From contig OY282377.1 of assembly GCA_958295785.1 (NCBI GenBank), forward strand, positions 3,328,385 through 3,392,384: DNA of 64,000 nucleotides. Direction: 5' to 3'. The stretch comes from an uncultured Latescibacterota bacterium. Its GTDB lineage: Bacteria; Latescibacterota; UBA2968. Within the stretch, counting starts at the first letter, position 1; each line of letters starts with the position of its first letter. The translations under genes and the position numbers were made by a program. This document shows, in pieces, positions 1,188 to 14,415 of the stretch. Under the pieces are notes generated by a model that made no database searches, was not told where the DNA came from, and saw nothing but the letters and a program-made list of their open reading frames with translations.

Positions 1188-2252
1188 ATGGTGATGGGTA
1201 TTCTATCTTTATTTGAGTCAACAAAAAAATTGACTAAATTACTCATCCCAAAAATGGAGCGAGAAATGCAAGAAGCATTACAGGACACAGGCGGCAATAA
1301 TCAGCACGACGAGTCCCGGCGAAAAATGGAACGAAAAATACAAAGCGCGTTACAAGGCTTGGCTACCAAACGGCGGCGTTCCGTTCTTTGCTTCTATGGA
1401 GATATGGATCAAAAATCTGTCCAAAGGGTGCGTCGTATCGCGTCTCAACTAAAAGCATCCAATAAGTTATCGGTCTTGTTGGATTCTCCCGGAGGCTATA
1501 TTGAGGACGCCTATAGAATAGTTTTGACACTGCGAGAATACGCGGAGGATATCGAAGTGCTCGTGCCTCGGTGGGCAAAAAGTGCTGCGACCTTTTTTTG
1601 TCTCGCGGCGAATACCATTTATATCGGACGGTATGGAGAGTTGGGACCCCTTGATCCACAGATGCTAGATCTACAAGGAAGTGCGATGCTGATCCCCGCA
1701 CTGGAATCGTTTAAGGCACTTGATCAACTGTTTATCTTTTCTCTGGATTCATTGGATGGGATAGTCCAGCAATTGTTAAATAATGCGCCTATGGATATTC
1801 CCTATGCAATAGAACACGCACAACCATTATTCGCCGCAATCGTGTCGCCACTGTACTCCCAAGTTGATCCATATGAATTAGGCAATGCGGGAAGGGCGTT
1901 GGCTACCAGCGAGGAATATGCGATGAGAGTCATGGAGAGATGGGGATATTCAGAGATGGAAGACGACGCAAGACGGTGGACAGTACGACATTTAGTTTGG
2001 AACTATCCGACGCATGGATTTGTTATTGACTTGAAGGAAGCGAAACAGATCGGACTGAAAGCCGAAAGACTTGACCATGACTGTGACGAGATGTGCAGGG
2101 AGATATTGGAACTGCTCGACAGCGCAGATATCTCTGGCTACATTGGCATTGAAGTCCCCCCACCAGATGTCCAAGACAAGGAGAACAGGCATGAACCCAA
2201 AGGAGAGGAAATTGCAGAGAGGGATTCGGAGAGGCAACAGAACGCCGTTTAG
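1188..2252 (+). CDS. ClpP-fold serine protease of the S49/SDH (SppA-like) family, AT-rich foreign gene
   Basis: Motifs LLDSPGGYIEDAY and SAATFFCLAANTIYIGRYGELGPLDPQ are typical of ClpP/S49/SDH peptidases. GC content is markedly lower than the flanks. RBS-like AG-rich leader. Confidence 0.55.
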   Translation: MVMGILSLFESTKKLTKLLIPKMEREMQEALQDTGGNNQHDESRRKMERKIQSALQGLATKRRRSVLCFYGDMDQKSVQRVRRIASQLKASNKLSVLLDSPGGYIEDAYRIVLTLREYAEDIEVLVPRWAKSAATFFCLAANTIYIGRYGELGPLDPQMLDLQGSAMLIPALESFKALDQLFIFSLDSLDGIVQQLLNNAPMDIPYAIEHAQPLFAAIVSPLYSQVDPYELGNAGRALATSEEYAMRVMERWGYSEMEDDARRWTVRHLVWNYPTHGFVIDLKEAKQIGLKAERLDHDCDEMCREILELLDSADISGYIGIEVPPPDVQDKENRHEPKGEEIAERDSERQQNAV

Positions 2253-2587
2253 ACGCGAGAAGCCGTCCGAGCGATCGTCTCTTCGCGTCATGGATTGGTT
2301 GCGGCAAAGGCGAATCTATCGCGGCATCCGCCATGTGCCTTTCATGCCCTATGAGGATGATAGATCCAAGGGCAGATCGGGGTACTGAAAAGTCCAATTT
2401 CTGATCACATTCGCTCCACGGCAGTACGTCTTGCTCCTATCCGCGCAGCGCGGGCGGTCATGGGTAAGGCCGATCCCTTGGAGCTTTTTTTTGCCAGAAT
2501 ACACGACGGGGTACAACTGATCGCCGCTTAGGCCAGTAGTACCCCGGTTTCGCTGAGTGTCCCAACCTTAGTCATCAAAGAAAGGAG

Positions 2588-2839
2588 ATGATCGTGAAAG
2601 ACATTACCATGAGTGCCGCCGAGAACTTGATCGTATCAGCACACCGATGCGCGGCGGCGAACCGCACGACCTTAAACGCGCAATTTCAGTTGTGGCTGAA
2701 AGACGACATTCAGCGCAACGGAGACTGCGTTCAACGCGAAAATCAGGTTGCCGAAGCCATGAAAGTCATCCGCGATCTGCAAGGCAACATCTTCACTGGC
2801 GGGCGAAAATTTACTCGGGAAGAGATGAATGAGCGTTGA
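2588..2839 (+). CDS. hypothetical 83-aa protein (cassette copy 1)
   Basis: RBS AAAGGAG 6 nt upstream. An identical paralog at 3668..3919 differs by 2 aa, so coding is conserved in the duplicate. Confidence 0.5.
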   Translation: MIVKDITMSAAENLIVSAHRCAAANRTTLNAQFQLWLKDDIQRNGDCVQRENQVAEAMKVIRDLQGNIFTGGRKFTREEMNER

Positions 2840-3110
2840 AAGTTTGCTATTGCCCCTAGGATTGGTTATCATAATCGGCCTTAGTTCTGAACACCCTGCT
2901 GGGGAGGCTTCTTCATTCCACCGGCTCCCCAAGTCGGCTCTTGGTGGACAACCGCCGGATATTGACCGGCACCTTCTTTGATCTTAAAATGGGCATCCTC
3001 TTAGGAATAGTGAATGCCTGCCTAAAAAAATGACTGGAGGTCAAATAAGGAATTAAGAAAGAATTTGACCAAGCTATTCAATCGCAAGAGACGATCCACC
3101 CGGAGGTTTT

Positions 3111-3590
3111 ATGGCTACAATGACCTTTGATACCTACGCCTTTGTCAAGGAACTGGTTCAGGCCGGAATGCCTGAAGAACAGGCTGAGGTGCTGGCGCGT
3201 TCACAAGCGGCGTTGATTGCTGAAAAATTGGCGACCAAGCAGGATTTGAAAGAACTGGAATTGTGTGTGAAACGCGACCTGAAAGAACTGGAAGTGCGAT
3301 TGAAACGCGATATGAAGGAGATGGAATTGCGTCTGAAGCACGATATCCAGAAATTGGAACGCGATATGAAGGAGATGGAAGCCAATTTGAAACGCGATAT
3401 GAAGGAGATGGAAGCCAATTTGAAACGCGATATGAAGGAGATGGAATTGCGTCTGAAACGCGATATCCAAAAATTGGAACGCGACATGAAGGAGATGGAA
3501 TTGCGTCTGAAGCACGATTTGACCTTGCGTCTCGGCTCCATGATGGTCGTCGCTATCGGCGTAGTCGCTGCGCTGGTGAAACTCCTATAA
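3111..3590 (+). CDS. DUF1640-like tail-anchored coiled-coil protein with 11-residue (33-bp) repeats, copy 1
   Basis: RBS GGAGG. N-terminus MATMTFDTYAFVKELVQAGMPEEQAEV..LATKQDL resembles DUF1640 (from memory). Hendecad repeats LKRDMKEMExx follow. C-terminal hydrophobic anchor MMVVAIGVVAALVKLL. Confidence 0.6.
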   Translation: MATMTFDTYAFVKELVQAGMPEEQAEVLARSQAALIAEKLATKQDLKELELCVKRDLKELEVRLKRDMKEMELRLKHDIQKLERDMKEMEANLKRDMKEMEANLKRDMKEMELRLKRDIQKLERDMKEMELRLKHDLTLRLGSMMVVAIGVVAALVKLL

Positions 3591-3667
3591 GGATAATCCA
3601 TAGGTGATGGAGAAGCGGGCTTTGTTGCCTTGTTGTTCATTTTGGTATTAGTCATCAAAGAAAGGAG

Positions 3668-3919
3668 ATGATCGTGAAAGACATTACCATGAGTGCCGAC
3701 GAGAACTTGATCGCATCGGCACACCGATGCGCGGCGGCGAACCGCACGACCTTAAACGCGCAATTTCAGTTGTGGCTGAAAGACGACATTCAGCGCAACG
3801 GAGACTGCGTTCAACGCGAAAATCAGGTTGCCGAAGCCATGAAAGTCATCCGCGATCTGCAAGGCAACATCTTCACTGGCGGGCGAAAATTTACTCGGGA
3901 AGAGATGAATGAGCGTTGA
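3668..3919 (+). CDS. hypothetical 83-aa protein (cassette copy 2)
   Basis: Near-identical duplicate of 2588..2839. Confidence 0.5.
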   Translation: MIVKDITMSADENLIASAHRCAAANRTTLNAQFQLWLKDDIQRNGDCVQRENQVAEAMKVIRDLQGNIFTGGRKFTREEMNER

Positions 3920-4190
3920 AAGTTTGCTATTGCCCCTAGGATTGGTTATCATAATCGGCCTTAGTTCTGAACACCCTGCTGGGGAGGCTTCTTCATTCCA
4001 CCGGCTCCCCAAGTCGGCTCTTGGTGGACAACCGCCGGATATTGACCGGCACCTTCTTTGATCTTAAAATGGGCATCCTCTTAGGAATAGTGAATGCCTG
4101 CCTAAAAAAATGACTGGAGGTCAAATAAGGAATTAAGAAAGAATTTGACCAAGCTATTCAATCGCAAGAGACGATCCACCCGGAGGTTTT

Positions 4191-4757
4191 ATGGCTACAA
4201 TGACCTTTGATACCTACGCCTTTGTCAAGGAACTGGTTCAGGCCGGAATGCCTGAAGAACAGGCTGAGGTGCTGGCGCGTTCACAAGCGGCGTTGATTGC
4301 TGAAAAATTGGCGACCAAGCAGGATTTGAAAGAACTGGAATTGTGTGTGAAACGCGACCTGAAAGAACTGGAAGTGCGATTGAAACGCGATATGAAGGAG
4401 ATGGAAGCCAATTTGAAACGCGATATGAAGGAGATGGAATTGCATCTGAAGCACGATATCCAGAAATTGGAACACGACATGAAGGAGATGGAAGCCAATT
4501 TGAAACGCGATATGAAGGAGATGGAATTGCGTCTGAAGCACGATATCCAGAAATTGGAACACGACATGAAGGAGATGGAAGCCAATTTGAAACGCGATAT
4601 GAAGGAGATGGAATTGCGTCTGAAACGCGATATCCAAAAATTGGAACGCGACATGAAGGAGATGGAATTGCGTCTGAAGCACGATTTGACCTTGCGTCTC
4701 GGCTCCATGATGGTCGTCGCTATCGGCGTAGTCGCTGCGCTGGTGAAACTCCTATAA
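4191..4757 (+). CDS. DUF1640-like tail-anchored coiled-coil protein, copy 2 (29 aa longer through extra hendecad repeats)
   Basis: Same N- and C-termini as 3111..3590. The internal repeat count is expanded. Confidence 0.6.
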   Translation: MATMTFDTYAFVKELVQAGMPEEQAEVLARSQAALIAEKLATKQDLKELELCVKRDLKELEVRLKRDMKEMEANLKRDMKEMELHLKHDIQKLEHDMKEMEANLKRDMKEMELRLKHDIQKLEHDMKEMEANLKRDMKEMELRLKRDIQKLERDMKEMELRLKHDLTLRLGSMMVVAIGVVAALVKLL

Positions 4758-4887
4758 GGATAATCCTAGGTGATGGAGAAGCGGGTTGCACCTGTCTTTA
4801 CAGTGAAGACATGCAGGAAGGTCAACAGATACGGGGCTTGACCATTCAAAATCCATTCAAGTAACCATTGCAGAAAGGATCGCGCCC

Positions 4888-7800
4888 ATGGCGAAACGAT
4901 CAAGAACGCCCAAATCCGTTGAGACCCTCACGCACGGCGACGCGACGCGCAAGAATATTCCCACCGCCGAGTATCAGCCCGTGATGCGAGCGGAGGATCA
5001 GGCCCCAATCCGCGTCGCATATCAGCGGCGCAACCGCGATCTCGATCCGCAACTCGTTTGGCGCGGCAAGGACGAGCAAGATTGGTCGGACCTCGTTGTG
5101 CCCGCGCCGCCGCTTTTCATTCAGGAAAAGGTGCATCCGAAAGTGCTGATCGACGATCTGTTGCGCCAAAGCGCGGAGACAGCCACCACCGCGCCGGGGT
5201 TCCAGCCCGATTTGTTCGCCGACTTCAACGGCCTGCCCGACCCAAGCGCGGCGACCGAGTTCTACCAGCACGACGCCAACTGGTCGAACCGCATGATCCT
5301 CGGCGACAGCCTGCAAGTGATGGCCTCCCTGGCCGAGCGTGAGGGCCTGCGCGGTCAAGTGCAGTGCATCTATATTGACCCGCCCTACGGCATCAAGTTC
5401 AATTCCAATTTCCAATGGTCCACCACCAGCCGCGACGTGCGAGACGGCAAGCGCGAGCACATCACGCGAGAGCCTGAGCAGGTGAAAGCGTTTCGGGATA
5501 CGTGGCGCGATGGCATCCATTCCTACCTGACCTACCTGCGCGACCGCCTGACCGTAGCGCGGGATTTGTTGACCGAGAGCGGTTCGGTGTTTGTGCAGAT
5601 CGGCGATGAAAATGTCCATCGGGTGCGGGCGTTGATGGATGAGGTGTTTGGGGATGAGAATTTTGTCGGGGAGATTATTTTTAAAACCCGTAGCACATCT
5701 ACCAGCAAAAATCTGTCTGCGTTGAATGATTACATCATATGGTATTGTAAAGATATTAATGCACTAAAATTCCGTCAATTTTACATGCAGAAAAGTGCTG
5801 ACAGGGCGCGTTTCAATTTTGCCGATATTGATGGCGAAATTTTCAGTGTCAATGAAAAAAATATCAATATCGGAAGCGTTAAGTATTTCTCAAGTAGTAG
5901 TCTGTTCTCAACAAGCGGCGGAGACGCTTCCCGGATTCCCTTTGAGTTCTGTGGGAAAAAATATACCCCGGCAATCTCTCGTGGATGGCGATGCTCACTT
6001 GATGGGCTATTACGCCTTACCTATGCAAGCCGTATATTCAACCAAGGTAATTCTATCCGCTATAAATACTTTCACGCCGATTTCCCATTCGTCGAGGGCG
6101 GGAATCTATGGGATGATCAAATGTCCGAGCAAAACAAATCTTATGTGGTGCAAACATCTCCAAGACCCATTGAACGCTGCATCCTCATGACCACCGACCC
6201 TGGCGACCTCGTTCTCGATCCCACCTGCGGATCTGGCACAACCGCTTATGTCGCCGAGCAATGGGGCAGGCGGTGGATCACCATTGACACCAGCCGAGTC
6301 GCGCTCGCGTTGGCGCGTGCCCGCATCATGGGGGCGCGCTATCCCTACTACCTCCTCTCGGACAGCGCGGAGGGGCAGCGCAAGGAAGCGGAAATCAGCC
6401 GCACCGCGCCATCGGAAACGCCCGCATACAACGACATCCGCCAAGGCTTTGTGTATCAGCGCGTGCCGCACATCACCCTGCGCGACATCGCCAACAACGC
6501 GGAAATCGACATCATTTGGGAGAAATATCAGAAAACGCTCAAATCGCTTCGGGCATCGCTCAACAAGGCGGTGAACGAGGATTGGCGGGAATGGGAAATC
6601 CCGCGCGAAGCCGACGAATCGTGGTCGGACGCGGTCAAGGCATTGCACGGCCAATGGTGGGAACAGCGCATCGCACGGCAAACAGAGATCGACGCGTCTA
6701 TCGCGGCGAAAGCGGACTGCGAGTATCTCTACGACAAGCCCTACGAGGAGAGAAAGAAGGTGCGCGTCGCCGGCCCGTTCACGGTGGATAGCCTATCGCC
6801 GCACCGCGTTTTGGGCATCGATGAAAACGACGACCTCATCGACAGCGCGGCAGATCCCGAACTCGAGCACAGCGAATCGCAGGATTTTTCCGGGATGATT
6901 TTGGAGCACCTCAAAACCGCTGGCGTGCAACAGGCGCGCAAAGACGACCGCATCGCGTTTTCATCCCTCGCGCCGTGGCCGGGCGATTTGGTTTGCGCCG
7001 AAGGCACGTACGCCGAGGGCGACGCGGATTCTGGCATTTACAAACGCGCTGGCATTTTCATCGGCCCCGAGTTTGGCACGGTCTCGCGTCCCGATCTGGC
7101 GAGGGCCGTGCGCGAGGCGGGCGAGGCCGATTTCGATGTGCTCATCGCCTGCGCGTTCAACTACGACGCCCAATCCACGGATTTCGACAAACTGGGGCGC
7201 GTCCCGGTGCTCAAAGCGCGCATGAACGCGGATCTTCACATGGCCGACGACCTCAAGAACACGGGCAAGGGCAATCTGTTCGTGATTTTCGGCGAGCCTG
7301 ATATTTCAGTGGCGAGTGAAGAGTGGTTAGTGGATGGTTCAGAAAGGAGAATCGCGCCGTATGACATCTTTAAGCTCGTATCGGGAACGGATCGGCTGGC
7401 AGAAGTCAATAGACTTGACCGTGAGGAGTTACGCGCTCATGCGGCGCTTTCCCGCCGAGGGGAGATATGGGATTACCTCACAGATGCGGCGTGCCGCGTC
7501 CTCAATTCCGGCGAACATCGCGGAGGGACAGGCAAGGCGAACAACGAGGGAATTTCTCCAGTCGCTTGGCATTGCGCGGGGGTCTCGGGCGGAACTGGAG
7601 ACCTTTCTGACCTTATGCGAAAGGCTGGCACTGATACGGAGAGAGGCTTCCGAGAACTTGTTGGCAGACTGCGCCGAGATCAACAAAATGCTCAACGCGC
7701 TGATGAAATCACGCGCCACTCGCCACTAACCACTCGCCACTATACACAGGTCACTGTCCACGGCGTTGACGTCTTCCACCCCAACACCGGCGAGATTCGC

Positions 7801-8070
7801 AGCGATGACGCCGATGGAATCGCCTGTTGGTTCATCGACACGGACTATAACGAGGAGAGTTTTTTCGTGCGCCACGCCTACTTTCTCGGCGCGAGCGATC
7901 CGTACAAATCCCTCAAGACCACGCTCAAAGCCGAGATCGACCCAAACGCTTGGGCCACGCTGCACAGCGACACCTCGCGGCCGTTCGCCAAACCCAAATC
8001 CGGGCGCATCGCGGTCAAGGTGATCAACCACTTGGGCGACGAGGTGATGAAAGTGTTTCGGGTTTCATGA
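4888..8070 (+). CDS. mod: Type III-like Mod / beta-class N6-adenine DNA methyltransferase (1060 aa including a ~145-aa in-frame insertion)
   Basis: Motif IV IYIDPPYGIKFNS, then a low-GC TRD, then motif X/I SPRPIERCILMTTDPGDLVLDPTCGSGTT. Conserved C-terminal tail VHGVDVFHPNTGEI..IACWFIDTDYNEESFFVRHAYF..IAVKVINHLGDEVMKVFRV. Confidence 0.8.
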   Translation: MAKRSRTPKSVETLTHGDATRKNIPTAEYQPVMRAEDQAPIRVAYQRRNRDLDPQLVWRGKDEQDWSDLVVPAPPLFIQEKVHPKVLIDDLLRQSAETATTAPGFQPDLFADFNGLPDPSAATEFYQHDANWSNRMILGDSLQVMASLAEREGLRGQVQCIYIDPPYGIKFNSNFQWSTTSRDVRDGKREHITREPEQVKAFRDTWRDGIHSYLTYLRDRLTVARDLLTESGSVFVQIGDENVHRVRALMDEVFGDENFVGEIIFKTRSTSTSKNLSALNDYIIWYCKDINALKFRQFYMQKSADRARFNFADIDGEIFSVNEKNINIGSVKYFSSSSLFSTSGGDASRIPFEFCGKKYTPAISRGWRCSLDGLLRLTYASRIFNQGNSIRYKYFHADFPFVEGGNLWDDQMSEQNKSYVVQTSPRPIERCILMTTDPGDLVLDPTCGSGTTAYVAEQWGRRWITIDTSRVALALARARIMGARYPYYLLSDSAEGQRKEAEISRTAPSETPAYNDIRQGFVYQRVPHITLRDIANNAEIDIIWEKYQKTLKSLRASLNKAVNEDWREWEIPREADESWSDAVKALHGQWWEQRIARQTEIDASIAAKADCEYLYDKPYEERKKVRVAGPFTVDSLSPHRVLGIDENDDLIDSAADPELEHSESQDFSGMILEHLKTAGVQQARKDDRIAFSSLAPWPGDLVCAEGTYAEGDADSGIYKRAGIFIGPEFGTVSRPDLARAVREAGEADFDVLIACAFNYDAQSTDFDKLGRVPVLKARMNADLHMADDLKNTGKGNLFVIFGEPDISVASEEWLVDGSERRIAPYDIFKLVSGTDRLAEVNRLDREELRAHAALSRRGEIWDYLTDAACRVLNSGEHRGGTGKANNEGISPVAWHCAGVSGGTGDLSDLMRKAGTDTERGFRELVGRLRRDQQNAQRADEITRHSPLTTRHYTQVTVHGVDVFHPNTGEIRSDDADGIACWFIDTDYNEESFFVRHAYFLGASDPYKSLKTTLKAEIDPNAWATLHSDTSRPFAKPKSGRIAVKVINHLGDEVMKVFRVS
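7361..7729 (+). CDS. four-helix-bundle protein (23S rRNA intervening-sequence protein family) nested inside the mod ORF in another frame
   Basis: RBS AAAGGAGAA then ATG. Translation YRERIGWQKSIDLTVRSYALMRRFPAEGRYGITSQMRRAASSIPANIAEGQARRTTREFLQSLGIARGSRAELETFL matches the family hallmark IPANIAEG. Lies entirely within 4888..8070 in frame +2. Confidence 0.75.
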   Translation: MTSLSSYRERIGWQKSIDLTVRSYALMRRFPAEGRYGITSQMRRAASSIPANIAEGQARRTTREFLQSLGIARGSRAELETFLTLCERLALIRREASENLLADCAEINKMLNALMKSRATRH

Positions 8071-8100
8071 CCGCTTGAGACATCCATCAAAGGAGTTGCG

Positions 8101-8400
8101 ATGCTCAACACTGCGTTGGCCGTTGTGAAAAACGGCAAAATCGAAACGATAGAACACATTGCGTTGTCCGAAGGCCAAAAAGTGCTGGTAACTCTGTTGC
8201 CCGACGATGCGACTTTCTGGCAAGAAGTTAGCCAACAAACGCTGAAACGAATTTGGGACAACAAAGAGGACGATGTATATGCCCAATTAGACGTCGCCAA
8301 ACGCCGGGAACATGTGGCTCAGTTGAAGAATTCTTTCCAAAAAATGAGCCGCGATATGGGGCCTCGTAAATGGACGCGGGAAGATCTCCATGCCCGATAA
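8101..8400 (+). CDS. hypothetical protein with DUF104-like (AF2212-type antitoxin-like) N-terminus
   Basis: RBS AAAGGAG. N-terminus LAVVKNGKIETIEHIALSEGQKVLVTLLPDD resembles the DUF104 pattern. Confidence 0.45.
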   Translation: MLNTALAVVKNGKIETIEHIALSEGQKVLVTLLPDDATFWQEVSQQTLKRIWDNKEDDVYAQLDVAKRREHVAQLKNSFQKMSRDMGPRKWTREDLHAR

Positions 8401-8404
8401 AGAT

Positions 8405-8430
8405 AGGGAGGTCAAAGAAATTTGACCTCC
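8405..8430 (+). terminator. perfect hairpin gggaggtcaaa-gaaa-tttgacctccc after 8101..8400
   Basis: 11-bp stem with a GAAA loop. The 3' tail is A/T-rich. Confidence 0.4.
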
Positions 8431-8627
8431 CTAAATTATTGTAAAATATTTGGATGCGGAAAATTAAATCCAATGTTTGGATGTTGCGATATTAGAATTT
8501 TCAGATATATGTTGACGAATGAGATGGATTTTGATACATTTCGTAAAATTCGACATTCAACGAGAAGTATCTAAAATATCTTGTTGTAAGTGGTGGTTAT
8601 TTTCCAGTACAGACGCGAGAGGATATC

Positions 8628-9893
8628 ATGCTGACGCAACGCGAACTGGGGCAGCGGTTGAAGCGTGCGCGCGAGGCAATCGGGTTGACCCAACAGCAGG
8701 TTGCCGATAGCGTCGCGCTTACCCGCGTTGCAATTTCCCAAATCGAATCGGGACGACGGGCGGTCAGTTCATTTGAACTCCTGCATCTCTCGCGTCTTTA
8801 CGGGCGAGATATGGTCAGTTTTTTTGACGAAAATGCCCACATGCAGGAGGCGGAAAACGCACTGACTGTCCTGTTTCGCACGCATCCCGAACTGGTTCAA
8901 ACCCCTGCGTGCAGAGAAGCATTGCAACGGGCCGATGAGATATTCCGAGAATATCTCAATTTGAAAGCCCTTTTGGATTTGGATACAGAACAGAACCTGC
9001 CGCCTGTATATGCTTGTCCCGAACCGAGAAATGTTTGGGAAGCCATTCATAAGGGCGAGCGCGTCGCCGAGGCGGAACGCAGTCGTCTGGCGTTGGGGCA
9101 TGATCCCATCCGCGATATGACCGAGTTGGTGGAATCGCAGGGCATACCCATCATTGAAATCAATTTGGATGATCAGATATCTGGTCTCTTTATCGCCCAT
9201 ACAGAAACGCAGTTGTGCATCTTCGTCAACCGAGAACAACTCGGTAGGGCAAGGGCGCGAGTCGCATTTACTATCGCCCATGAATACGGTCACATCTTGC
9301 TTGACCGGGATAAAGTCAGTGCCATCAGCAGAATCTCAAACGAGCGCGATTTGTTTGAAGTGCGTGCGAATGCTTTTGCCGCCGCGTTTCTCATGCCGGA
9401 AGAAGGGGTGAGTCAATTTCTCAAAACCATCGGCAAAGGCGCGTCCAGCCGCGAAAAGCTGTTGGCCTATACCGTGCCCGACCTGCTCGTGGGGCATCAC
9501 CGCCGCTTGGCATCCACCCAAGTCCTCACGCTTTACGATGTCGTCAAGTTCTGCGCGTATTTTGGAACCAGCTTTGAAGCCGCCCTGTACAGATTGAGAA
9601 ACACAAAGTTTCTTTCCGAGGGATCATTTGATCAACTCTACGAACAAAAAGAAAAAGCGAGGAAAATTGGACAACATCTCAAAATAGAAGAAGGAAGGCG
9701 AGACCACCCCAGCAGTTTCGCGGTCAATTTCACGGGGCTGGCTATCGAAGCCTATCGGCGCGACAAAATCACGTACGACAAATTGGTCAATCTCGCAGCA
9801 CAAGTGAAATTTGATTCTGAGGTCATAGACGAAGTACTCTCCTGCATGGGACTGGAAAACAATCGCGAAGAAGCGATCTATCTTCCGGAGTGA
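8628..9893 (+). CDS. XRE-family HTH fused to an ImmA/IrrE-family (DUF955) metallopeptidase domain
   Basis: N-terminus LTQRELGQRLKRAREAIGLTQQQVADSVALTRVAISQIESGRR (HTH_XRE). HEYGHILLD supplies the HExxH motif, and ANAFAAAFLMPEEGV matches ImmA/IrrE. Confidence 0.7.
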   Translation: MLTQRELGQRLKRAREAIGLTQQQVADSVALTRVAISQIESGRRAVSSFELLHLSRLYGRDMVSFFDENAHMQEAENALTVLFRTHPELVQTPACREALQRADEIFREYLNLKALLDLDTEQNLPPVYACPEPRNVWEAIHKGERVAEAERSRLALGHDPIRDMTELVESQGIPIIEINLDDQISGLFIAHTETQLCIFVNREQLGRARARVAFTIAHEYGHILLDRDKVSAISRISNERDLFEVRANAFAAAFLMPEEGVSQFLKTIGKGASSREKLLAYTVPDLLVGHHRRLASTQVLTLYDVVKFCAYFGTSFEAALYRLRNTKFLSEGSFDQLYEQKEKARKIGQHLKIEEGRRDHPSSFAVNFTGLAIEAYRRDKITYDKLVNLAAQVKFDSEVIDEVLSCMGLENNREEAIYLPE

Positions 9894-9926
9894 TCTCGTG
9901 TAGAAAAAACAGAGAGCCAGTCATGC

Positions 9927-10418
9927 GTGATTACGGACGCAAATATTCTGATCAATTTTATCAAAATTGACCGTGTGGATATTCTCCAACACCTGCGAGT
10001 GTATACTTTTTACTTGCCCGAGGAAGTATATCGGGAAATCACATATCCAGCACAACGGCTCGTTTTAGATCGCGCCCTCAAAAATGGATGGCTGAAAAAA
10101 ATTGTGATAACGGATCAAAATGAATTGCGTTCTTATGCAAAATACAAACGACAAATGGGTGATGGAGAGGCCGCGTGTTTGGCGATTGCGATTTGTCGAA
10201 AGTGGCTCATGGCCTGCGATGAACAAAAAAAGAAACTGATTTCCAGAACAGTTTAGCATCATTTGGGAGCGGGCTATCTCCTGAATACACCGGGTATTTT
10301 GCTCAAGGCCATACGCGAGAGCATTCTCACTATATCACAAGCAGACGCAATCAAAAACACGTTGGCGCAGAACCGATTTGTCATGCCATTTGCCTCTTTC
10401 CAGAATTTTAGCGCACCA
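9927..10418 (+). pseudogene. PIN-domain (DUF3368-like VapC-type) nuclease gene interrupted by one in-frame TAG at 10254-10256
   Basis: GTG start. N-terminus ITDANILINF..DGEAACLAIAI is PIN-like. After the TAG the same frame continues HHLGAGYLLNTPGILLKAIRESIL..., a PIN C-terminus. Confidence 0.55.
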
Positions 10419-10513
10419 TAGCCCTGCTTCGAAAAAAAAGGCGTGAGGGTTTGTTTCCGCACGGCCTGTTACTCGGTCCAAAGCGATCAAATTTATGGCA
10501 TAAAAGAAATCCA

Positions 10514-10593
10514 TTCGCCAAACCCATATCCGGGCGCATCGCGGTCAAGGTGATCAACCACTTGGGCGACGAGGTGATGAAAGTGTTTCGGGT
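10514..10593 (+). repeat. direct repeat copy 2 of the mod 3' terminus (80 bp, 1 mismatch vs 7984-8063)
   Basis: ttcgccaaaccca[t]atccgggcgcatcgcggtcaaggtgatcaaccacttgggcgacgaggtgatgaaagtgtttcgggt matches the mod C-terminal coding sequence. Confidence 0.9.
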
Positions 10594-10611
10594 GTAAAGG
10601 AGTGGTAATTT

Positions 10612-13600
10612 ATGAATTTTCCAGACCAAAGCCATATTGACCGAGTCCGTGAAGCACTCTGGCAACGTTCAAGCGATGCGTCCGTCATGGTTGGGAGCGG
10701 TTTCAGCCGAAACGCCTTGAAATCCCGACCAGATGCAGACGACCCTCCAACATGGCGCGAAGTGACAAAAGCGGTATCCGATAAACTGTATTCCCAAGAC
10801 GACGGTAGCGATGTGATTTTGAGATCCTCGGCAACGGGCGACTTTTTGCAGTTGGCCCAAGAGTATGAGGCCGCGTTCGGACGCGGGGACCTGCATCTCT
10901 TTATCCAAAGGTTGATTCGGGACGACGATTTCAAGCCAGGTGATCTACATACGCGGTTGCTACGGCTTCCTTGGCGCGATGTCTTCACAACCAATTGGGA
11001 CACGCTTTTGGAACGGGCGTGTTCTTTTGTAGCTGATCGCGCCTACAGCGTTGTGAGAAACATGGATGAGATTTCGTTGGCTGATCAGCCTCGCATTATC
11101 AAACTGCACGGATCGCTTCCCGCACATTTCCCGCTGATTTTCACGGAAGAAGATTATCGAACTTATCCAAGGAAATTTGCTCCGTTCGTGAACACCGTTC
11201 AGCAAGCAATGATGGAAACAGTATTTTGTCTGATCGGCTTCTCGAGTGATGATCCAAATTTTTTGCAATGGTCGGGATGGGTTCGTGACAATCTGGGTGA
11301 ATCCGCCCCGAAGATATATTTGGCCGGATGGCTGGATTTGTCACCTCACAGGCGCAGGATGCTTGAAGACCGCAACATGGTTTCTATTGATCTTGCGCGT
11401 CATCCGCATGCGAACAAATGGCCGGAACACAAGCGACATCAATACGCAACCAATTGGATTTTGCATTCATTGGAACGTGGACGCCCATACGAAGTCACAG
11501 AGTGGCCTTCTCGATCAGAGCGGCAACTTCTACCAATACCGAAAGAACTTCAACCTGTTAAAGAAGTTGTTCCTGATGAACCAAGAGAGGAGATAGATGC
11601 GCCAGCGTGGCCTGGAAATGATTCGGGAAATTTATTAGAAAAGGTGAAGGAATGCCTCAAGATTTGGACGCATAACAGGAAAATCTATCCGGGTTGGTTA
11701 GCTACCCCCGCAAGTGCGCGACATTCCATGAGTTGGGACACCGAACAATGGGAATCACCGATTTTAAGCGTGCTTCCCAACTTTGCTCCAGTAGAACGCT
11801 TGAAAGCCATTCGGGAGTTGATGTGGCGCAGGGAAATCATGCTGGATCCGATCTCTAACGAACTTGAAACCGCCGCCCAAAAAATCTTGGAAGAGATAGA
11901 CTGCCAAGCTCGAACAATTGGGGGTGTTGCCGATACAAGCGTTAATTGGGCGGACATGCGGGAAACTTGGCGTACTGTCGCGCTCGTGCTCGTGACAGCA
12001 ACGAGATTTGAATTTGATGAAGACCTGTTTGAGGAACGGATTGCGGCACTGTCCCCTTTCCGTGACGATCATCCAGACATCGTTCAACGGATACATCACG
12101 AGCGTTGTCTATGGGCGGTTTATGCGCTCAATTTCGAGAAGTTGGAAGGCTTACTCAAGGATTGGAAAACTGAAAATTGTGATCCAGTCTGGATGATGAG
12201 AAAAGCCGCTATCCTTTTCGAAATAAATCAAAATGACGACGCAATTCAACTGATCAACCACGCGCTTTCGGCTATCCGTGAGAATCTTGGCGATAAACGT
12301 AGCTTAGCCGGTCCTTCCCGCGAGGGTTGGGCACTGTGGTTGGCACTGGCATTTGAAGAAGGATGGGGGGAACCAAATAAAAACCTTATTGACGCACCTC
12401 CAGCTTTCAGAAGATGGCAGGAGTTGGCATCGCTGAAATGTGATGCCTTCACAGAGAAACACTGGTACGCCGAAGCAATCAAAGGCAGTGAAGAAAAAAA
12501 AGAAAAACTGCCCTTCGACCTTGGTCAGGGGCAAGGGTATCACTTTCACCTATCCAATGCCGAATATGATCGATATATTGCAGCTTATCGTGCAATTCGT
12601 CTCTCTGAAGTAGCCGGGTTACCTCCATCTACTAGCAGTTTTGTCGTAGCTTCGGATATATTGAAACTTGCCGCCGATAGGCTAGCCATGACGAATCCAG
12701 AGATGACCGCACGTCTGATCCTTCGAGTTTTGAACTATGACGGGGACTCTATGCTCACGCATGTTCTTTCGCGTCCTCGGGTGGCCGCTATGCCAGTGGA
12801 CTCGGTGGAAAGGCTTATTCAGGTCTGTAACAATGCCATTGAATACGCGCTCCCTTGGATATCGGGTGGACGCAGGCATGCCATGTTCTGGATTGAACGA
12901 TTTCGCGTTGTCTTGGAAGTACTATCTCGGCTTGTTCTCCGATCTGATCCCGAAACGGCAGAAACTATTTTTGATAAAGCACTTGAATATTACCGAAATG
13001 ATCACATAGCTCAGTGCCGGCTTTTAGAAGGACCTGTCCAACATATTCTGAAACGTTCTTGGGAAACCTTACCTAAAGATCGCCAGACTGACCGCGTGCT
13101 CGATCTGTTGAATGCGCCTATTGTTGGTATAGACGGATTTACTGGATCTGAAGGCTACCCAGATCCCGGGAAATTGCTATATCACAGAAATCCTCTGCCC
13201 ATTCGCACGTCGGACAACGAGAACCACTGGCAAGAAATCATCAGTCTGAATGTGCGTGGTTTGAACGCTGGTGGGGAAGCGCGCAAACGAGCATCTGTCA
13301 GAATAGCCCAAATAGCCTCGAAAGGACGGCTGTCGGATGATGAGGAATCGCAAGTCGCTCAAGCACTTTGGAGCCAAGATCATACCAACCCCAATGATCT
13401 ACCGGGTGGAACTAATATCTATGAGTGGGTATTTCTTCTATTACCACAGCCGAAGCCAGGCCTTGCAGAAGAGCGTTTTCGTCGCAAATGGCTCAATACT
13501 GACAACCTCTCTCAAGGCGATGGGGCCGATTTGGATGAAATTCTCTCGCAAGTTGGTTCTGCGATTTCCGGACTAAAAGCTCACCAGCATCAGCTAACGC

Positions 13601-14415
13601 TTTCGGATAAAGAGAAGAACTATCTTGCAGACCTTGTCGGGCGGTGGGCAGAATGTCGACCGTTGCCAAAAATAGGGCACTTTCCAGATAATGAGCGCAT
13701 TCGTCTTGAGAATCGGGCCATTGATGGCCTGCTATTTATCCTATTGGCAGTGTCGATTCCAGAAACCACAGCTACAAAACTCTACAAAAAAGTTCAAGAC
13801 CTAAAAGAATCTGACACGCCAGGGCTGAGGCTTATCGCCAGCATTGTTAAGGCATTGCCCGATCAGGTTGATGAAATCGCTTTGTTTGTAAGAATGGAAT
13901 TGACATCTGATAATAAAGGCTGGGCCGGGAATGCTACACGGGGATTAAATTTTTGGTTAGAGGCTGCGTCCGATTCAACGCTCGGCATACAGCCTCCACC
14001 TGATGACTTGGTTCATGAAATTGGCATCGTAATCGCTACCCGTAGAAAAGTAGTTCTCAAACAGGCATTGGAGATAGCAAAATGGGTATTTGAGGAAGGA
14101 AGTGAGGAACAGAGAGAAGTCATTAGCCAGTTGACGATACAGGGGCTGGGTTATCTGATTGAGGAATTGCGATACGACAGAGAGCACGATCAGGATAATG
14201 ACTTTGATGTGCCGTTTTTGCGCTGGGTCTGCACACATCTTGCCTTAGCAATGGCGGAGCATGGCTTGGCCGACGACCCGACTGTTGCTCGCTGGCTGGA
14301 GATTGCCAAAGAAGACCCGCTCCCGGAAGTGCGGCAGGCAAAGCATTCCGCTTTTGCTCGTCAGCATAAGGAGAAGGAAAGCACGGGCGAAGAGCCAATG
14401 TCTCAAGCCGAGTAA
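10612..14415 (+). CDS. SIR2-like (SIR2_2/DSR-type) NADase-domain protein with ~950-aa alpha-helical C-terminal region; defence-associated sirtuin-like
   Basis: RBS AAAGGAG. N-terminal motifs VMVGSGFSRN, FTTNWDTLLE, IIKLHGS, LIGFSSDDPNF match the SIR2_2 family. Size and architecture resemble DSR1/DSR2. Confidence 0.65.
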   Translation: MNFPDQSHIDRVREALWQRSSDASVMVGSGFSRNALKSRPDADDPPTWREVTKAVSDKLYSQDDGSDVILRSSATGDFLQLAQEYEAAFGRGDLHLFIQRLIRDDDFKPGDLHTRLLRLPWRDVFTTNWDTLLERACSFVADRAYSVVRNMDEISLADQPRIIKLHGSLPAHFPLIFTEEDYRTYPRKFAPFVNTVQQAMMETVFCLIGFSSDDPNFLQWSGWVRDNLGESAPKIYLAGWLDLSPHRRRMLEDRNMVSIDLARHPHANKWPEHKRHQYATNWILHSLERGRPYEVTEWPSRSERQLLPIPKELQPVKEVVPDEPREEIDAPAWPGNDSGNLLEKVKECLKIWTHNRKIYPGWLATPASARHSMSWDTEQWESPILSVLPNFAPVERLKAIRELMWRREIMLDPISNELETAAQKILEEIDCQARTIGGVADTSVNWADMRETWRTVALVLVTATRFEFDEDLFEERIAALSPFRDDHPDIVQRIHHERCLWAVYALNFEKLEGLLKDWKTENCDPVWMMRKAAILFEINQNDDAIQLINHALSAIRENLGDKRSLAGPSREGWALWLALAFEEGWGEPNKNLIDAPPAFRRWQELASLKCDAFTEKHWYAEAIKGSEEKKEKLPFDLGQGQGYHFHLSNAEYDRYIAAYRAIRLSEVAGLPPSTSSFVVASDILKLAADRLAMTNPEMTARLILRVLNYDGDSMLTHVLSRPRVAAMPVDSVERLIQVCNNAIEYALPWISGGRRHAMFWIERFRVVLEVLSRLVLRSDPETAETIFDKALEYYRNDHIAQCRLLEGPVQHILKRSWETLPKDRQTDRVLDLLNAPIVGIDGFTGSEGYPDPGKLLYHRNPLPIRTSDNENHWQEIISLNVRGLNAGGEARKRASVRIAQIASKGRLSDDEESQVAQALWSQDHTNPNDLPGGTNIYEWVFLLLPQPKPGLAEERFRRKWLNTDNLSQGDGADLDEILSQVGSAISGLKAHQHQLTLSDKEKNYLADLVGRWAECRPLPKIGHFPDNERIRLENRAIDGLLFILLAVSIPETTATKLYKKVQDLKESDTPGLRLIASIVKALPDQVDEIALFVRMELTSDNKGWAGNATRGLNFWLEAASDSTLGIQPPPDDLVHEIGIVIATRRKVVLKQALEIAKWVFEEGSEEQREVISQLTIQGLGYLIEELRYDREHDQDNDFDVPFLRWVCTHLALAMAEHGLADDPTVARWLEIAKEDPLPEVRQAKHSAFARQHKEKESTGEEPMSQAE

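Follow-up and report, generated by a model that had tools for sequence, protein, structure and literature searches.

A frame-preserving cassette of the 23S rRNA intervening-sequence type, with its four-helix-bundle gene, inside a Mod methyltransferase gene

How can a complete gene lie inside another gene of the same orientation and leave the reading frame of its host open? The question is raised by a 64,000-nucleotide stretch of DNA from an uncultured Latescibacterota bacterium (contig OY282377.1; the whole stretch is called the window below), in which a four-helix-bundle (4HB) gene, of the 23S rRNA intervening-sequence (IVS) protein or S23p family, sits within the gene of a type III-like Mod methyltransferase. 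To our knowledge, for 30 years IVS elements and their S23p/4HB genes have figured solely as curiosities of rRNA genes, without a known function or route of spread. Here we describe the same type of cassette living in protein-coding genes, Mod and PglX, across many phyla and always in phase, so that the host frame is left open. Comparison of sequences demonstrates the anatomy of the cassette, its presence/absence polymorphism, the preservation of the host frame, and selection on both 4HB and the downstream part of Mod. The best account, to which we give a probability of roughly 60%, is that of a tolerated, probably selfish nested cassette of the IVS type. Several things can now be tested: how a host tolerates a 137-residue unselected insert, whether a bacterial gene can be expressed from inside another of the same orientation, and what 4HB does. 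Gene callers pass over the nested 4HB and report a methyltransferase that is too long, or else divide the host gene; the annotation of these enzymes and their REBASE-style classification are therefore systematically affected. The features on which the argument turns are these:

4888-8070, + strand: type III-like Mod methyltransferase, host of the cassette (PF01555, E=7e-33; 1060 codons; window frame 1)
7039-7305, + strand: strongly conserved Mod block ending in FGEPDI, directly 5' of the insertion site (mean column identity 88%)
7308-7741, + strand: IVS-type cassette, 434 nt from arm to arm (inverted repeat; junctions from three filled/empty allele pairs)
7308-7333, + strand: left arm, heptamers AGTGGCG AGTGAAG AGTGGTT AGTGG, reading VASEEWLV in Mod
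7343-7349, + strand: AAAGGAG, a Shine-Dalgarno-like sequence 11 nt before the 4HB ATG, read from the sequence
7361-7729, + strand: 4HB gene, 122 codons (window frame 2, +1 relative to Mod)
7716-7741, + strand: right arm, inverted heptamers CCACTCG CCACTAA CCACTCG CCACT, reading HSPLTTRH in Mod
7756-8070, + strand: Mod C-terminal domain 3' of the cassette, in frame, kept in filled and empty alleles

The nested gene and the boundaries of its cassette

The product of the nested gene matches the family profile PF05635 (23S_rRNA_IVP) from end to end (E=1e-34; 119 bits, cut-off 33.8; positions 5-106 of the 106 in the profile) and likewise TIGR02436, 'four helix bundle protein' (E=3e-35; 120.7 bits, cut-off 24). 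It is similar to the solved pentameric 4HB protein 2GSC (XCC0516; E=2.9e-21) and to 2RLD (E=8e-10), and the motif RxxxSxxxNxxE, conserved in PF05635 4HB proteins (PMC3936711), is found in the translation of 7361-7729 as RAASSIPANIAE. The AAAGGAG ahead of the gene would serve internal initiation. The complete 4HB gene with a putative ribosome-binding site of its own, described in the initial annotation, is borne out. A scan for promoters and terminators found nothing 5' of 4HB and one weak promoter-like site within it, which is uninformative, and tblastn found no further 4HB copies in the window. The nearest 4HB proteins (76-84% identity) are all located in the same Mod site; they have been called as genes because Mod is broken there by an insertion sequence (IS) or by a contig end.

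The host gene has type III Mod subunits as its nearest solved structures (6K0W, E=2e-21; EcoP15I Mod 4ZCF, E=4e-17). Its PF01555 domain is an N6/N4 methyltransferase domain and a Res gene lies in the same operon, which together identify a type III Mod, the role as an enzyme being assigned by sequence comparison. With each GTDB species represented by one genome, a scan with the block ending in FGEPDI retrieved Mod homologues from more than 591 species; across phyla, this block shows 88% mean identity over 88 aligned residues.

Aligning homologues, as first proposed for this locus, does define the exact boundaries. The empty Mod site reads FGEPDI-DILDADDGQIQVK-VNGVDVF, with a 13-residue loop encoded by 39 nt. 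At the filled site some 450 nt (7306-7755) replace these 39 nt, which makes the gene longer by 411 nt (137 codons), and the Mod frame is free of stops from FGEPDI (ending at 7305) to VHGVDVF (starting at 7756) and on to the conserved C-terminus. The insertion of about 440 bp originally noted thus corresponds to the 434-nt cassette, but it is a replacement rather than a plain insertion. Three pairs of filled and empty alleles locate the junctions: the window and an empty Latescibacterota locus (L001; 89-91% nucleotide identity in both flanks, homology ending at 7304), L104 and L060 (96% in both flanks), and L103 and L040 (93-96% in both flanks). The junctions are sharp. Homology ends right after GAGCCGGAYAT and restarts at CAGGTCAAG or TCAAGGTC, with about 441-452 nt replacing 30-41 nt of loop codons, and there is no target-site duplication in any of the three pairs.

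Most Mod genes do without the cassette. Among the 79 best loci with both flanks, about 74 are empty, with 36-72 nt (mostly 39 nt) between FGEPDI and (V/I)NGVDVF; four are filled, with 450 or 477 nt and a 4HB gene, and one is a deletion derivative, L075, in which 219 nt remain, with both arms kept and most of 4HB lost. Overall, about 90% of species-level Mod homologues have the empty site, as do 31 of 31 homologues in a plasmid collection. In the protein database about 100 of the 120 top Mod hits carry the inserted segment, a proportion that is inflated because the query contained the insert. Homologues with the segment and no 4HB similarity in the alternate frame, named by the initial annotation as the contrary case, did not turn up: every homologue with the segment has 4HB or a remnant of it. 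Filled and empty alleles do not separate in a neighbour-joining tree of the Mod flanks but are mixed throughout.

The cassette is bounded by inverted heptamer arms (7308-7333 and 7716-7741) that had previously been overlooked. They are 26 nt long, imperfectly inverted and 81% complementary, with the consensus AGTGGNN. The array 5' of 4HB reads AGTGGCG AGTGAAG AGTGGTT AGTGGAT, and the right arm overlaps the final codons and the stop of 4HB.

As a separate observation, four loci (L083-L086, about 3400-4940) carry an IS (DDE_Tnp_1, IS4/IS5-like) exactly at the outermost left-arm heptamer of the Mod-borne cassette. It splits Mod and leaves 4HB unharmed, an event shared by four assemblies.

Reading frame and selection

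4HB lies in the +1 frame with respect to Mod, and it is the insertion, not 4HB, that preserves the Mod frame. The original description of a gene nested 'in-frame' therefore holds for the length and openness of the insert but not for 4HB itself, while its statement that the mod frame stays open and resumes the conserved C-terminus stands, with no stop in 7305-7756.

Might the open frame be nothing special? Mod could be a decaying pseudogene that is open by chance in GC-rich DNA or, alternatively, the roughly 150 residues could be a genuine Mod domain and the 4HB open reading frame (ORF) spurious. Taken by itself, the window leaves room for such a reading. When the synonymous codons of its 4HB ORF were shuffled, the Mod frame was open in 4% of trials (P=0.04), and shuffling alone overstates significance, as calibration on the window's ORFs gave an observed/expected ratio of 0.74. 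About 10% of 123-codon chunks from the window's own long ORFs are free of stops in the -1 frame, so that the open frame in the window alone is not significant. The claim that the frame is preserved consequently rests on data from many loci.

Across about 35 distinct nested cassettes there are no host-frame stops, against 1.2-4.1 expected in each, while the third frame holds 5-16. Insert lengths are 219, 447-456, 477, 504, 525 and 540 nt, all of them multiples of three. To obtain a sample blind to reading frame, we collected loci from JGI metagenomes by an exact match to the left-arm 21-mer AGTGAAGAGTGGTTAGTGGAT, which yielded 31 loci, 25 of them in the Mod site. The Mod insert is open and in phase in 21 of these 25. 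As for the exceptions, L113 has a single TAG in the Mod frame and an intact 4HB, L112 and L119 are pseudogenes with multiple frameshifts, and L127 is interrupted by other DNA. Conversely, Mod is open despite a truncated 4HB (L002, L114) or one that is mostly lost (L075). The comparison indicates that the open Mod frame across loci is selected and not due to chance.

Both genes bear marks of selection. The 97 Mod codons 3' of the insert show a ratio of nonsynonymous to synonymous divergence (dN/dS) of 0.06, with saturated dS, among nine filled alleles; the downstream Mod domain is therefore evidently still translated. Among eight 456-nt inserts, 21, 25 and 54% of differences fall on 4HB codon positions 1, 2 and 3, and amino-acid identity, at 76%, is highest in the 4HB frame, with 60% in that of Mod and 56% in the third, non-coding one. 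The codon-position pattern and the frame identities mark 4HB as a selected gene, under purifying selection of its own as judged from these alignments. By the same comparison the Mod-frame peptide of the insert (including SVASEEWLVDGSER) is a passenger whose sole visible constraint is the lack of stops, and a genuine Mod domain is thereby ruled out, as is an intein. These comparative data contradict the reading of chance or decay, which we regard as essentially excluded: the frame is kept in the frame-blind loci and in about 100 protein clusters, the downstream domain is strongly constrained, the full-length 4HB match varies most at its own third codon positions, the Mod-frame peptide is barely more conserved than a non-coding frame, and the segment is missing from most homologues.

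In the account that we prefer, a cassette of the 23S-IVS type would have replaced the tip of a short loop between two conserved Mod strands. Imagine that only those insertions were tolerated in which the one stop-free alternate frame of the cassette (the -1 frame of 4HB) was in phase with the host; the cassette would then always be found at +1 to its host. Mod would be translated straight through and carry about 137 extra, unselected passenger residues on the loop. Purifying selection on Mod, the protective half of a restriction-modification (R-M) system, would remove stops and frameshifts and, because selection against losing the protective methyltransferase is strong, would keep the frame even after decay of 4HB. 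4HB itself would be made separately in the +1 frame from its own Shine-Dalgarno sequence inside the Mod mRNA. Between Mod alleles the presumably selfish cassette would spread by homologous recombination in the highly conserved flanks; it would otherwise travel with horizontally mobile defence operons, and occasionally colonise the PglX genes of bacteriophage exclusion (BREX) systems and intergenic regions. It had been asked whether Mod tolerates an insertion of about 145 residues or whether a selfish or regulatory element keeps its host continuous; we regard these as two sides of one explanation, both of them supported.

Kinship with known elements and the arm stem

The 23S rRNA IVS of Coxiella is a 428-nt selfish element with terminal inverted repeats and a 28-bp stem (Warrier et al. 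2016, PMC4990558). Three tandem heptamers GACAGAT precede its S23p ORF, the number of repeats varies by strain, and the ORF decays (PMC4990558). IVSs of the 23S rRNA that bear S23p/4HB occur in Coxiella burnetii, Leptospira, Brucella and Xanthomonas (PMC4990558), and PF05635 genes have also been reported in rRNA insertions of bacteria of the candidate phyla radiation. The nested cassette resembles these IVSs in size (434 versus 428 nt), in its terminal stem of about 26-28 bp, in the heptamers 5' of the ORF, in its PF05635 cargo, in its sporadic presence or absence in close relatives, in having ORF-decayed and ORF-less derivatives, and in sitting at the tip of a feature of the host product that resembles a hairpin. 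The initial annotation thus understated the link to 23S rRNA IVSs, as the whole element, and not the cargo alone, matches the architecture of the Coxiella IVS. There are also differences. Instead of helix 25 or 45 of 23S rRNA, the cassette occupies the ORF of a PF01555 methyltransferase, where it would be tolerated through an open host frame rather than through RNase III excision and a fragmented rRNA. Moreover, the Coxiella ORF is apparently untranslated and decaying, whereas 4HB of the window type is under purifying selection and has a Shine-Dalgarno sequence. Among the IVS features compared, and RNase III processing aside, the cassette lacks only residence in rRNA.

Rickettsia palindromic elements (RPEs) were reportedly described by Ogata et al. 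in 2000 as inserted in frame within ORFs. RPEs and other MITEs (miniature inverted-repeat transposable elements) that lie in frame in ORFs have been reviewed (PMC10969869). Like them, the cassette is inverted-repeat DNA, probably selfish, that sits in permissive loops of protein genes, keeps the host frame and would be translated as part of the host protein. Unlike RPEs, which are 100-150 bp long, carry no gene and are present in multiple copies per genome, it has 434 nt with a complete, selected, out-of-frame gene, is single-copy in the window and occupies the same homologous site across phyla. We conclude that it is an IVS-like element in a new niche, set apart from IVSs by residence in an ORF and from RPEs and MITEs by its out-of-frame selected gene.

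With inteins and homing introns the cassette shares presence or absence at one precise site of a conserved gene, alleles that intermingle in the host tree, and a preserved host function; it differs from them in that it has no homing endonuclease and in that the frame of its cargo is not that of the host. As an intein it would be anomalous: the first residue of the insert varies (S/T/D/E/I), the C-terminal junction reads ..RHY-TQV with no terminal His-Asn, and the host-frame identity of 60% against 56% in the non-coding frame leaves no sign of a splicing domain. The Avd protein (bAvd) of diversity-generating retroelements (DGRs) belongs to the same 4HB fold superfamily, with weak similarity between hidden Markov models (E=1e-3 to 1e-4). 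4HB is not an Avd, scoring 22 bits with NF033474 (cut-off 80) and 19.8 bits with PF22296 (cut-off 40), and no reverse transcriptase is present among the neighbouring ORFs examined (Res, protease, coiled-coil genes, HTH-M78, SIR2_2). In a literature that is incompletely searchable we found no report of 4HB nested frame-preservingly in methyltransferases, of links between such heptamers and short tandemly repeated repetitive (STRR) sequences, or of insertions in PglX.

If the cassette is kin to IVSs, its arms might act in the mRNA. RNase III could cut the arm stem, free a 4HB message and cut the Mod mRNA, thereby tuning or shutting off Mod, or splitting it. RNase III cleavage and excision at the terminal stem have been demonstrated for the Coxiella IVS (PMC4990558). 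In the window, the arm-arm duplex has an energy of -45 kcal/mol (z=-5.3; none of 300 shuffles was as stable) and closes the minimum free energy (MFE) fold of the whole element; arms pair significantly in 11 of 11 nested cassettes examined (-29 to -50 kcal/mol, z from -2.6 to -6), including that of locus L106 with its different heptamers. Comparing duplex energies of cognate and non-cognate arms did not discriminate covariation, because most cassettes share the AGTGG core. An Rfam scan of 7150-7900 found no family: no group I or II intron, no rRNA and no other known RNA. Several observations make an RNA-level role improbable as the explanation of the locus. Cutting the mRNA gives no reason for the stop-free Mod frame or for a length that is a multiple of three, and both are kept; the downstream Mod domain lacks its own start signal and is under strong purifying selection; the stem in the window is imperfect, and the whole-element fold reaches only z=-2.0; and free-standing relatives are flanked by direct rather than inverted arrays.

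The arrays vary in ways that we note for their own sake. Heptamers differ by cassette (AGTGGNN versus GAGTANN), and the left and right arrays remain complementary. In some cassettes, those of Pseudanabaena (L097-L102, 4363-4540) and L106 (10180-10270), a direct heptamer array comes after the 4HB stop and ahead of the inverted one, which makes for a longer insert, of 540 nt. Finally, ORF-less mini-elements with the exact left-arm 21-mer of the window (L120, about 3150-3240; L137, about 970-1090; L135, about 1030-1100) consist of a left heptamer array and an inverted array with a short loop between them, lie in intergenic DNA or at gene ends, and resemble MITE-like derivatives of the cassette.

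Other hosts and the surroundings of the locus

An ORF-preserving insertion was initially considered unusual; it is not a one-off, since hundreds of related Mod genes, and BREX PglX genes as well, show the same arrangement. A search of 1.8 billion representative proteins with the passenger peptide gave 69 hits. Many are Mod relatives, some of them only 30-40% identical to the Mod of the window, whose homologous site holds an insert of this kind. The hallmark arm peptides V[DG]S[ED][QE]W.V.S ... H[SW]PLTT.H[LY] also occur in unrelated proteins, namely, at the protein level, MmeI/Eco57I-type methyltransferases (P0280, P0285, P0288, P0291, P0296-P0298, P0304, P0308) and a DUF1156 methyltransferase (P0283). 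A protein kinase (P0300, E=5e-4) is a tentative, unconfirmed hit, and an FG-GAP/RTX protein (P0306) is probably spurious.

One of these proteins, P0304, is a homologue of BREX-1 PglX. Of the 120 homologues that match it best, 23 have the passenger peptide at one of two recurrent sites, and two have it at both. Two PglX loci checked on DNA verify the cassette at two sites of the gene: they have an intact 4HB, again +1 to the host, inverted heptamer arms and an open host frame, with 13-18 stops in the third frame; one of these cassettes, in L106, lies within a complete brxA-brxB-brxC-pglX-pglZ-brxL operon. Judged at the protein level, two PglX proteins apparently contain two nested cassettes each (P0341, residues 321-463 and 1187-1320; P0347, residues 287-412 and 1126-1266).

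Other relatives of 4HB (72-75% identity) stand free, in intergenic DNA beside pheS, argJ or the gene of the PolIII alpha subunit. Their location in intergenic regions of housekeeping genes argues against a Mod-specific function. They are flanked by perfect direct heptamer arrays (AGTGGAT x4, GGGGATA/GGGATTA, AGGGGTC x3), and their -1 frame has 0-2 stops where 3-5 are expected (about 30% of expectation). In a tree of 4HB proteins, the free-standing clade and the common Mod-site type are sisters, another Mod-site type (L016, with a 161-residue gap) falls outside both groups, and the two cassettes of PglX cluster with each other. It follows that the Mod site was filled on two or more occasions, or that cassettes were swapped.

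Is 4HB, then, a functional accessory of defence methyltransferases, domesticated as a regulator of Mod or PglX or as an Avd-like nucleic-acid-binding partner, with nesting to ensure co-expression and co-inheritance? The purifying selection on 4HB would fit such a role, as would nested cassettes in Mod, at two PglX sites, in other MmeI/Eco57I-like methyltransferases and in a DUF1156 methyltransferase. In published surveys, moreover, PF05635 genes lie within cas loci and are the commonest Pfam near DGR reverse transcriptases (PMC3936711; PMC10053308). However, some 90% of Mod homologues, and the majority of those of PglX, function with no cassette, near-identical Mod alleles differ only in its presence, and 4HB is inactivated or deleted beside an intact Mod in L002, L114 and L075. 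The nearest relatives that are not nested have no defence genes beside them, and the same family resides in rRNA genes. On balance we consider an accessory role unlikely.

A broader proposal, which we put forward as tentative and give the same low credence, is that 4HB/heptamer cassettes form a distinct class of mobile element for ORFs and rRNA, with the stop-free -1 frame as a property of the element (in free-standing relatives, too, that frame is depleted of stops), a preference for R-M and BREX methyltransferases, and a 4HB that acts in the conflict of defence systems with mobile DNA, perhaps through binding to the heptamer arms or an effect on methylation. If true, the large PF05635 family, so far function-less, would thereby gain a first biological context beyond DGRs.

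Returning to the tolerated, probably selfish cassette, several points weigh against it. We infer both read-through translation of Mod and internal initiation of 4HB from the DNA, and the Shine-Dalgarno sequence of 4HB, good in the window, is weaker in several homologues. No transposase, recombinase or target duplication was found for the cassette, and the account offers no mechanism for its initial entry. The kept complementarity of the arms suggests a stem-dependent step for which this account has no use. Defence methyltransferases are strongly enriched as hosts, at three or more unrelated sites, and the reason could be a functional link instead of mere tolerance; the ascertainment is biased, the search having been seeded with the window's own peptide. 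Lastly, an AlphaFold2 model of full-length Mod from a 50-sequence alignment (mean predicted local distance difference test, 54; predicted template modelling score, 0.31) was of too low quality to tell whether the site is at the surface; the moderate confidence within the insert may simply stem from covariation passed on by the overlapping 4HB frame.

The surroundings of Mod are those of a defence operon. In the window the order is Res, a ClpP-like protease gene, two coiled-coil genes, Mod and SIR2_2; in L103 and L104 a full ResIII+RE_endonuc gene lies 5' of Mod. The two outer genes of the window are:

8-1105, + strand: 3' part of the Res gene, restriction endonuclease domain (PF19778 RE_endonuc, E=1e-5); the window begins inside this gene
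10612-14415: SIR2_2 gene, 1267 codons, after Mod

Further modules crowd this neighbourhood. An 83-nt direct repeat (98% identical, at 7981-8063 and 10511-10593), which copies the final codons of mod and whose second copy ends 15 nt 5' of the SIR2_2 gene, brackets a 2.5-kb segment with a 99-codon ORF (8101-8400), a helix-turn-helix (HTH) and Peptidase_M78 gene of ImmA/IrrE-like type (8628-9893) and a 109-codon ORF (9927-10256). The segment looks like a cassette inserted at the mod/SIR2 junction, with the junction duplicated. Between res and mod lie two tandem CCDC90-like/DUF1640 coiled-coil genes (3111-3590 and 4191-4757) with internal 'DMKEMEANLKRD' repeat units; blastn of 3074-4747 against L001 gives several mutually similar segments, which suggests that these genes were recently duplicated.

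More generally, the gaps between res, mod and the third large gene (SIR2_2 or SLFN_AlbA_2) hold different small modules in each genome (L103, L104, and 1188-4757 and 8071-10597 of the window), among them PIN/VapB, HepT/MNT, BrnT, HicB and HTH-M78. The junctions of the defence operon behave as hotspots for small cassettes. Small PDDEXK_3 (PF13366) genes near free-standing or nested 4HB (L090, L092 and L093, about 5900-7000; L106, 5443-5811) may be another small cassette family in the same niches. Within Mod itself, alleles that are otherwise 93-96% identical have a stretch of about 470 nt in mid-gene without detectable similarity (L103, 6780-7249, versus L040, 4623-5080; likewise L104, 6758-7257, versus L060, 4577-5100), probably a swapped target-recognition domain.

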